Below are positions 263 to 864 of a stretch of 864 bases of DNA, piece by piece. This DNA is from Escherichia coli. GTDB taxonomy: Bacteria > Pseudomonadota > Gammaproteobacteria > Enterobacterales > Enterobacteriaceae. The notes under the pieces are model-generated. The model was not told where the DNA came from. It did no database searches and saw nothing but the letters and a program-made list of their open reading frames with translations. A program made the position numbers and the translations under genes. How positions within the stretch are numbered: the first letter of the stretch is position 1; each line of letters begins with the position of its first letter. The stretch lies in the NCBI RefSeq assembly GCF_003334335.1, contig NZ_QOWQ01000142.1; one strand, 5' to 3'.

Positions 263-736
263 TTATCTGAGGCATTGCTCACGAATGTATAGCTGTGCCC
301 CTTCCAGCTGCTTCTGCATTGTCATCAACCGTTCTCTGAGGATGAAATAATCCCGTTCAGCGGCGTCTGCCAGTCTGGGGCCGGTTGCATTATCCACGCC
401 GGAGGTGGTGGGGGCTTCACGCACGGAGCCTGGACAGGTGGCGTTGATCCGCAGGCGCTTACGACCAGCGGCAACGTCAGCGCGAAGAGTTTCATTTTCA
501 GCTCTCGCATCGGCTAATTCCCTCGAGTATTTTGCATCGAGCGCAGCAACATCGCGCTGGCGCACCTGCATATCAGTAATGGTTGCGTTCGCCAGCTTCA
601 GTTCACTGGCTTTGTTATCGCGCTGCGCTTTGTAGGTAATCGCGTTATCACGGTAATGGTCTGTTGCCATCCACAGCGCTCCACAGGCCACCAGCAGAAT
701 AACGATAAACGCGGAAAGCATTCGGTTTATGTTCAC
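263..736 (-). CDS. Rz: Rz-family i-spanin (inner-membrane spanin subunit, annotated in many genomes as phage endopeptidase Rz/RzpD-like)
   Basis: The 157-aa ORF starts at GTG 736..734 and ends at TAA 265..263. It has a short N-terminus with one Arg, then a hydrophobic transmembrane segment ([19 protein letters not shown]), then a charged, Ala/Arg/Glu-rich periplasmic domain. From memory it aligns closely with lambda/P22 Rz: motifs [75 protein letters not shown] and a C-terminal EQC are all shared. Two periplasmic Cys are present (INATC and EQCLR), matching the disulfide-forming Cys of lambda Rz. An alternative start is ATG 721..719, giving 152 aa; neither start has a strong Shine-Dalgarno. 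Confidence 0.9.
325..510 (-). CDS. Rz1: Rz1-family o-spanin (outer-membrane lipoprotein spanin subunit), embedded in the +1 frame of Rz
   Basis: The 61-aa ORF (ATG 510..508) lies wholly inside the Rz gene in the +1 frame. It has a lipoprotein signal peptide with a charged n-region (MRELKMK), a hydrophobic h-region ([10 protein letters not shown]) and a lipobox VSA|C (Cys20, codon 453..451). The mature 42-aa peptide is very proline-rich (11 Pro) and carries a second Cys (Cys30). From memory, the mature segment [29 protein letters not shown] is nearly identical to lambda Rz1. GAGGG lies 9 nt upstream of the ATG. An alternative start is ATG 495..493 (MKLFAL..., 56 aa). Confidence 0.85.
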
Positions 737-864
737 CCCAGCAGCCCCGACGAAGACAACATCATCCAGGCCATGGAAAGAAAAAGAGCAACCAGCATTA
801 GTGAAAATGAAATGCCGACAATTACACAGAGGATCTTCGCCAGCGTTATGAGTTTGTCTGACAT
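733..864 (-). CDS. Hypothetical small single-pass membrane peptide (43 aa) upstream of and overlapping the Rz start; function unknown
   Basis: The ORF runs from ATG 864..862 at the window edge to TGA 735..733 and encodes [43 protein letters not shown]. It has a short polar N-terminus, a hydrophobic stretch of about 28 residues consistent with one transmembrane helix, and a short Ser/Gly tail. Its stop overlaps the Rz GTG start in a GTGA arrangement, which suggests translational coupling. The ORF was too short for the supplied ORF track. Its ribosome-binding site lies outside the window, and the ATG could be internal to a longer ORF. Confidence 0.35.

Follow-up and report, generated by a model that had tools for sequence, protein, structure and literature searches.

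A 43-codon membrane-peptide gene directly upstream of Rz in lambdoid prophages of Escherichia coli, with a possible accessory role in the lysis cassette

In phage lambda, the endolysin gene R stands directly before the spanin gene Rz, and the two overlap by ATGA. Small inner-membrane proteins encoded in lysis cassettes include holins and antiholins, such as lambda S105/S107 and the phage 21 S68/S71 pinholin, and P2 LysA, a non-essential membrane protein encoded between the endolysin and lysB/lysC, which reportedly affects the timing of lysis. Type I toxins (Hok, TisB, Ldr, and Zor) are likewise hydrophobic single-helix peptides of less than 60 aa that are targeted to the inner membrane. The releasin of phage Mu, gp25 (DUF2730), acts at the inner membrane during lysis (PMC9239132). 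Here, we describe an open reading frame (ORF) of 43 codons, referred to as ORF43, that directly precedes Rz in an 864-nucleotide stretch of Escherichia coli DNA (contig NZ_QOWQ01000142.1 of assembly GCF_003334335.1), referred to as the window. We consider it very probable that ORF43 is a real gene that is translated into a membrane peptide.

The window shows the lysis region of a lambdoid E. coli prophage in reverse orientation, with ORF43, Rz, and Rz1 on its minus strand. Several complete E. coli genomes match it at 100% identity (for example, NZ_AP022815 at 1213241-1214104), and the plaque-forming phages PhiR12_1, _2, and _5 do so at 99%. Positions in the full-record locus, L001, equal 5865 minus the window position. 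The ORF listing of the window bears out the original prediction of a 43-aa ORF whose TGA stop overlaps the GTG start of Rz as GTGA:

733..864, minus strand: ORF43 coding sequence (CDS), 43 aa plus TGA from an ATG start in the ORF listing; identical to RefSeq WP_001280932.1 and assigned to PHROG 4906
263..736, minus strand: i-spanin gene Rz, read from GTG in the ORF listing (PHROG 13, E 1.5e-73)
325..510, minus strand: o-spanin lipoprotein gene Rz1, nested within Rz in the +1 frame; its product has a signal peptide and the lipobox ...LVVSAC

Counterparts of the Rz1 gene in relatives are matched by Pfam PF06085 (Rz1). A length of 43 codons is insignificant on its own, because the window holds 11 ORFs of at least 20 aa; the case for a gene therefore rests on comparative and experimental evidence.

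The first line of comparative evidence concerns the start signals. A strong Shine-Dalgarno (SD) sequence, GGGAGGA, lies 6-7 nt before the ATG, just past the end of the window in the full record, where the original prediction had proposed to look for a ribosome-binding site. Across phages, the upstream junction of ORF43 is of at least four unrelated types, and an SD sequence and a start codon are present at every one of them. The upstream neighbor may be ORF60, a 60-aa transmembrane (TM) protein gene; a 189-aa Ant protein (933W type); a 231-aa ANT-domain protein followed by a 31-aa TM ORF; or the 31-aa ORF alone. At the 933W-type start, the ATG overlaps the ant stop (TGATG), and the protein gains 5-6 N-terminal residues. 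The mosaic breakpoints coincide exactly with the start and stop of ORF43, which fits a functional gene unit in a mosaic phage genome, and we regard this as the most telling point of the analysis.

Experimental evidence comes from a published ribosome profiling (Ribo-seq) catalogue. A 933W-type homolog of ORF43, XECs191, was described as a novel translated gene in O157:H7 Sakai, a small intergenic one without earlier annotation, located at 1945984-1946130 (Huecker et al. 2017, PMC5597208). In LB, it had 30.0 reads per kilobase per million (RPKM) for RNA and a footprint RPKM of 12.6, with a ribosome coverage value (RCV) of 0.43 and a coverage of 0.55. Its footprints fall on the right strand, its product was predicted to reside in the inner membrane with 1 TM helix (TMH), and the classifier verdict was "real" (PMC5597208). 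A search of the literature on XECs191, PhiR12, and the lysis cassettes of Shiga toxin (Stx) phages, and for the peptide string itself, returned no functional study and only this catalogue entry.

The existence of ORF43 is not new, as it is already recorded in RefSeq, in PHROGs, and in the 2017 Ribo-seq catalogue. A PGAP/RefSeq CDS covers it as a "hypothetical protein" (WP_001280932.1), and hmmscan places its residues 1-43 on positions 7-49 of the 49-position profile of PHROG 4906, a family of unknown function (E 2.1e-23). The exact protein occurs in at least 1000 contigs, and 276 phage records contain a full-length match at 65-100% identity (tblastn). These matches include 933W, phi24B, Min27, and most Stx1/Stx2 phages, in which the ORF is mostly unannotated. 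The suggestion that annotation had missed this peptide thus holds for 933W, phi24B, and Min27 but not for RefSeq/PGAP, PHROG 4906, or the XECs191 entry. At the DNA level, a blastn search of 5,426 complete E. coli genomes found ORF43 at 4,658 places, distributed over 1,750 of them.

Selection on the reading frame was assessed with 20 distinct ORF43 DNA alleles that differ from each other by up to 20%. None of the 20 carries a stop or an indel in the ORF43 frame; when the same substitutions are placed at random sites, the frame stays open in 0.9% of trials (permutation P = 0.009). Between the window type and the 933W type, dN/dS is 0.31-0.50 in the ORF43 frame and approximately 1-2 in the two other sense frames. 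Charged, strongly polar, or Pro replacements account for 4 of 35 replacements in the TM segment versus 28% expected (P = 0.018), and the mean hydropathy is 1.9-2.5 in every allele. From these comparisons, selection on ORF43 appears to be real but moderate.

The original prediction of a single TM helix agrees with the hydropathy profile, in which the best 19-residue Kyte-Doolittle window (residues 11-29) has a mean of 2.89, with the structure predicted by AlphaFold2, and with the single helix listed for XECs191. The main features of the peptide are as follows:

751..861, minus strand: predicted single alpha-helix, residues 2-38 (AlphaFold2, mean predicted local distance difference test [pLDDT] 88.7)
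760-834, minus strand: hydrophobic membrane-spanning core, approximately residues 11-35 (hydropathy)
790..819, minus strand: most conserved stretch, V16-G17-I-S19-F20-S21-L-M23-L24-V25 (invariant or near-invariant columns in 16- and 19-sequence alignments)

The most conserved residues in both alignments are V16, G17, S19, F20, L24, V25, W33, and L36. The G-x-S-F-S motif would form a small/polar patch in the middle of the membrane, of the kind that mediates helix-helix packing. In overall layout, about 10 N-terminal residues, which include the only two lysines of the peptide, precede a helix of roughly 25 residues, and some 8 uncharged residues form the tail. Because the lysines are confined to the N terminus and the tail is uncharged, the topology is probably N-in/C-out, with the qualification that 933W-type alleles have an added Arg after the helix.

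Searches for relatives beyond this family were uniformly negative. We detected no Pfam domain on any ORF43 homolog, no match to ORF43 in NCBIfam or among the PHROG spanin profiles, and no family (0) of the PADLOC defence models for ORF43, ORF60, ORF31, or ORF28. A word-index search and a full profile hidden Markov model (HMM) search of 1.84 billion representatives returned only a narrow family of E. coli/Shigella prophages (29 hits for the profile). ORF43 also shows no similarity to holin S, to the two holins of a divergent cassette in strain STEC306 (locus L104, described below), to the signal-anchor-release (SAR) domain of R, to the transmembrane domain (TMD) or N termini of Rz proteins, to ORF60, or to other DNA of the region. 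As far as these sequence comparisons reach, no characterised lysis protein appears to be homologous to ORF43.

By position and accessory status, the closest analogue of ORF43 would be P2 LysA, which is said to be much larger and multi-span; the two share no sequence relationship, and a timing role for ORF43 is inferred only. Holins and antiholins resemble ORF43 in being small inner-membrane proteins of the lysis cassette. Holins are defined functionally by timed, lethal hole formation or depolarisation of the membrane, and antiholins, which form no sequence family for comparison, by binding and inhibiting a cognate holin, such that their loss brings lysis forward. However, holins have 2-3 TMDs (or one TMD and a large periplasmic domain) and a highly charged C-terminal tail, whereas ORF43 has one helix and an uncharged tail. 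Holin genes also adjoin and precede the endolysin gene, whereas ORF43 lies downstream of R in a cassette that already has a class II holin upstream of R. The i-spanins combine an N-terminal TMD with a periplasmic coiled-coil of about 100 aa, and ORF43 has only about 8 residues after its helix. Type I toxin genes have their own promoter, a long 5' untranslated region (UTR), and a cis-antisense RNA, none of which was detected for ORF43, embedded as it is in a phage late operon. Simple scans, which weak or nonconsensus promoters could escape, gave no consistent antisense promoter near ORF43, and the window contains no RNA family known to Rfam.

Like ORF43, Mu gp25 is a small non-holin membrane protein encoded a few genes from a SAR endolysin and spanins (PMC9239132). 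Its 99 residues comprise an N-terminal, N-out TMD and an acidic cytoplasmic domain of 73 aa, without which the model of its action would not hold (PMC9239132). Unlike gp25, ORF43 has no soluble domain and no Pfam match, and it also occurs beside a non-SAR endolysin of the GH108 type. XECs191, PHROG 4906, and WP_001280932.1 represent ORF43's own family, with 67-100% identity over the full length and the same place directly upstream of Rz; XECs191 differs in its longer N terminus and in that its Rz starts 7 nt past the stop, in another frame. Position and architecture place ORF43 among the small accessory membrane proteins that lysis cassettes encode.

The full record supports the original prediction that a small membrane-protein gene is inserted between endolysin R and spanin Rz. 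In L001, the gene order is a class II holin, a YdfR pseudogene, the lysozyme gene R (177 aa), 156 nt of intervening DNA, ORF60, a 14-nt gap, ORF43, Rz/Rz1, and terminase. The endolysin of ORF43's own cassette is a SAR-type lysozyme. ORF60 occupies L001 4804-4986 on the ORF43 strand, ending 14 nt upstream of it, and has its own SD sequence; the N-terminal half of its 60-aa product is basic, and a TM segment lies toward the C terminus. The 156 nt that separate R from ORF60 include a strong terminator-like hairpin (14-bp stem, T-rich tail) directly 3' of the lysozyme gene at L001 4738-4770, within the late operon, and only Q-modified polymerase would be expected to read through it. We found no sense-strand sigma70-like promoter upstream of ORF43 in four contexts, again by simple scans that weak or nonconsensus promoters could escape, and ORF43 is packed 2-14 nt from its neighbors inside the late operon. 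Late, Q-dependent expression is therefore likely.

Rz-like DNA was found at 19,064 places in 5,201 genomes, compared to the 4,658 places for ORF43. Approximately three-quarters of Rz loci therefore do without ORF43, which makes it accessory and dispensable. Where present, it is usually located downstream of the endolysin and directly upstream of Rz, with exceptions in three loci (L103, L055, and L104), and a small TM partner, either ORF60 (PHROG 1115) or the 31-aa ORF (PHROG 6632), is usually found directly upstream of it. ORF60 and ORF43 form an adjacent pair in 1,039 of the 5,426 complete E. coli genomes. Fragments of the ORF60 family (40 aa and 28 aa; PHROG 4493/3246) also adjoin Rz.

In the enteropathogenic E. 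coli (EPEC) strain E2348/69 (L103 2286-2851) and in L055 (1271-1850), lysozyme and Rz are separated by a series of four small TM ORFs. The order is the 31-aa ORF or ORF60, then ORF43, then a truncated ORF60', and then a 28-aa piece of the ORF60 family; neighboring ORFs are 1-14 nt apart or overlap, and ORF60' overlaps the ORF43 stop by GTGA. The gap between R and Rz resembles a recombination hotspot in which mini membrane ORFs accumulate. In different Stx phages, the gap between R and ORF43 is occupied by one or the other of two unrelated antirepressor-type genes, namely, an ant of the P22_AR_N/ORF11CD3 type in 933W (L007 1917-2486; 189 aa, with its TGA overlapping the ORF43 ATG) and an ANT-domain gene of 231 aa in L005 (1711-2406). 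The cassette of STEC306 (NZ_CP091016, L104 1801-2323) has the ORF60-ORF43 pair after two holins and a GH108 non-SAR endolysin. The next gene after ORF43, in place of Rz/Rz1, encodes a protein of 60 aa that carries a signal peptide and a lipobox (…FFLVGC; PHROG 7528, of unknown function), and no spanin was recognisable in this cassette.

The junction between ORF43 and Rz bears on how Rz is translated, and its features are as follows:

733..736, minus strand: GTGA, in which the ORF43 TGA (735..733) overlaps the in-frame Rz GTG (736..734) (sequence and ORF listing)
728..730, minus strand: ATA codon aligned with the Rz ATG start (Met-Asn-Arg...) of 933W-type and other alleles (junction alignment)
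719..721, minus strand: alternative Rz start ATG, 11 nt past the ORF43 stop, chosen by PGAP (CDS 5144..5602 in L001)
732..782, minus strand: candidate mRNA hairpin in which the pyrimidine tract CUUUUUCUUUCC (codons 26-30) pairs with the purine-rich GGGGUGA at the 3' end of ORF43 (minimum free energy [MFE] folds)

In an alignment of seven junctions, the GGGTGA at the end of ORF43 is invariant. Five junctions continue with a purine-rich spacer of 7 nt and then ATG-AAC-CG (Met-Asn-Arg); at the window-type junction, the spacer is 5 nt shorter, and the ancestral Rz ATG has become ATA (730..728). The GTGA overlap is thus specific to the window-type allele, having arisen through a 5-nt spacer deletion and the change of ATG to ATA. 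With the ATG lost and the spacer shortened, Rz must start at either GTG 736..734 or ATG 721..719, and the former would retain the Asn-Arg residues that are conserved in other Rz proteins. Public records disagree on the Rz start, with PGAP choosing ATG 721 and the PhiR12 records a position approximately 50 nt further in.

The distance from the ORF43 stop to the Rz start is -4 or +11 nt in the window type and +7 nt in five other alleles, and the ribosome-binding region of Rz lies inside the 3' end of ORF43. Because initiation within 0-11 nt of the stop is combined with a ribosome-binding region inside ORF43, termination-reinitiation is plausible, and, judged from sequence, so is translational coupling of ORF43 to Rz. 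The candidate hairpin has MFE z scores against shuffled sequences of -3.0, -3.5, -1.9, and -1.5 in four alleles. Its pairing is possible in 82.7% of alignment cells, compared to 40-56% in slid controls, for a structure that was itself derived from one of the same sequences. A hairpin over the Rz initiation region is suggestive only.

We put at about even the chance that ORF43 is an accessory cistron of the lysis cassette whose product is a late-expressed micro-protein of the inner membrane, and that it both passes ribosomes to Rz/Rz1 and tunes lysis via a conserved face of its helix. It would be a discrete, exchangeable accessory cistron of Stx-type lambdoid prophages, usually the last small cistron before Rz/Rz1, and would share the Q-dependent late transcript of the lysis genes. 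Ribosomes finishing ORF43 would reinitiate at Rz, and ORF43 would thereby restore a coupling like that of the lambda R/Rz overlap where inserted DNA (ant or ORF60) separates R from Rz. The G17-x-S19-F20-S21 face may pack against another membrane protein of the cassette, such as the holin, the Rz TMD, or ORF60. ORF43 would then tune the membrane step or the timing of lysis and would not be required for lysis.

Several observations weigh against this proposal and, in part, against the gene itself. The footprint signal of XECs191 is weak and comes from uninduced lysogens of a strain, Sakai, in which the locus is multicopy. Purifying selection is moderate only, with a median pairwise dN/dS of 0.51 over 28 diverged pairs. 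A test for an excess of synonymous changes, based on a minimum spanning tree, gives a marginal result only (binomial P = 0.019; nonsignificant by base-matched permutation, P = 0.15), in part owing to the mosaic, recombinant nature of the alleles. Databases also contain frameshifted or truncated alleles (P0074, P0076, P0105, and P0113), and the family is confined to prophages of E. coli/Shigella. The junction hairpin shows no covariation in the alignment, and the consensus that RNAalifold itself finds is weak (-3.8 kcal/mol). Finally, ORF43 also stands before genes other than Rz (L103, L055, and L104) and beside a non-SAR endolysin (L104). Given these non-Rz and non-SAR contexts, no specific partner can be named; that ORF43 is tied neither to a SAR endolysin nor strictly to Rz argues against a partner-specific role and for a general role at the level of the membrane or of expression.

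A more ambitious form of the proposal strikes us as rather unlikely. Under it, ORF43, alone or with ORF60, would constitute a new class of single-helix lysis regulator that acts via the GxSFS face on a pinholin, a SAR domain, or an i-spanin TMD and so sets the timing of lysis and of Shiga toxin release, with no homology to any characterised holin, antiholin, releasin, or spanin.

Somewhat less probable still is that ORF43 is purely a coupling leader, with its translation opening the mRNA and delivering ribosomes to Rz after the separation of R from Rz and the peptide itself being functionless. The proximity of the Rz start to the ORF43 stop (0-11 nt), the position of the Rz ribosome-binding region inside the invariant 3' end of ORF43, the predicted occlusion of that region by the hairpin, and the only moderate amino acid constraint are all in keeping with a leader. 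Yet a leader would tolerate indels and polar residues, whereas the length of ORF43 is fixed in the 20 alleles, its hydrophobicity and the G-x-SFS motif are kept, and its replacements are conservative. Moreover, ORF43 is kept in L103, L055, and L104, where the next cistron is not Rz.

We give a similarly low probability to ORF43 being cargo unrelated to lysis that happens to lie in the R-Rz gap, either a type I-style toxin-like peptide or a factor for superinfection exclusion or lysogenic conversion. Its small size and hydrophobicity recall toxins of the Hok/TisB class, the gap takes up foreign genes (ant in 933W and ORF60), and the window type has the terminator-like hairpin after R. The low RNA and footprint signal in uninduced Sakai cultures also speaks for cargo, but that signal fits spontaneous induction. 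A cargo gene of this kind is further opposed by the absence, in simple scans, of a sense promoter in the four contexts and of a consistent antisense promoter, by the lack of any Rfam or PADLOC match, and by the spacing of 2-14 nt between ORF43 and its neighbors inside the late operon.

That ORF43 is a decaying or non-functional ORF, a recombination scar that has stayed open by chance and recent common ancestry, seems quite improbable. Its host range is narrow, about three-quarters of Rz loci lack it, disrupted alleles exist, dN/dS for close pairs is not far below 1, and small-ORF fragments, such as the truncated ORF60' of L103 and L055, are strewn through the R-Rz interval. Chance and ancestry would nevertheless have to account for the absence of stops in 20 alleles with up to 20% DNA divergence (P = 0.009), for an SD sequence and start re-created at four or more unrelated junctions, and for conservative replacements and reported ribosome footprints. 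No neighboring gene has the similarity expected of a source of such a fragment. We considered and rejected, for lack of similarity, an origin of ORF43 as a remnant of the Rz TMD, holin S, the R SAR domain, or ORF60 or as a duplication of nearby DNA. The original prediction had offered a remnant of a rearranged lysis region as one reading; the region holds nothing similar to ORF43, and the start signals are kept in every mosaic context.

It is barely credible that the coding frame lies elsewhere, as an N-terminal extension of Rz or as an antisense ORF, for although the Rz frame is open and an antisense frame is stop-free, the former has no start codon and changes in relatives and the latter is open automatically. 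As the original prediction had noted, and as the translations confirm, the Rz frame is open across 737..864 without any ATG, GTG, or TTG. It had left unsettled which frame is coding, and comparison with 933W-type relatives decides for the ORF43 frame. In 933W-type phages, the Rz ATG lies 7 nt past the ORF43 stop in a different relative frame that has many stops across ORF43, so the open Rz frame in the window is accidental. We therefore rejected an N-terminal extension of Rz, which would have no start codon upstream of GTG 736. The antisense candidate is as follows:

656-864, continuing past the window end, plus strand: antisense ORF that overlaps all of ORF43 and the Rz start (80 aa in L001 at 4967..5209)

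This antisense -1 frame is stop-free in all 20 alleles, with a dN/dS of 0.41. However, every synonymous recoding of the ORF43 protein keeps it open (P = 1.0), it shares its third codon positions with ORF43, and its ends vary in every allele, giving 34 to 80 aa. Its openness and low dN/dS are therefore automatic, and an antisense gene, which would also run against the direction of the late operon, was rejected as a composition artefact of the sense codons. Overall, a strong SD sequence precedes ORF43, no gene occupies another frame across this region, and relatives keep the ORF43 frame open while stops close the Rz frame and most other frames.

ORF43 is present in approximately one-third of complete E. 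coli genomes and in most sequenced Shiga toxin phages, inside the cassette that controls burst and toxin release. The practical outcome is modest: ORF43 should be annotated consistently, and the Rz start should be reconsidered in the window-type allele. If ORF43 has no role in lysis or in Rz/Rz1 expression, it would be one more small prophage ORF. If it does tune either of these, it would be an added component for the best-studied lysis paradigm.

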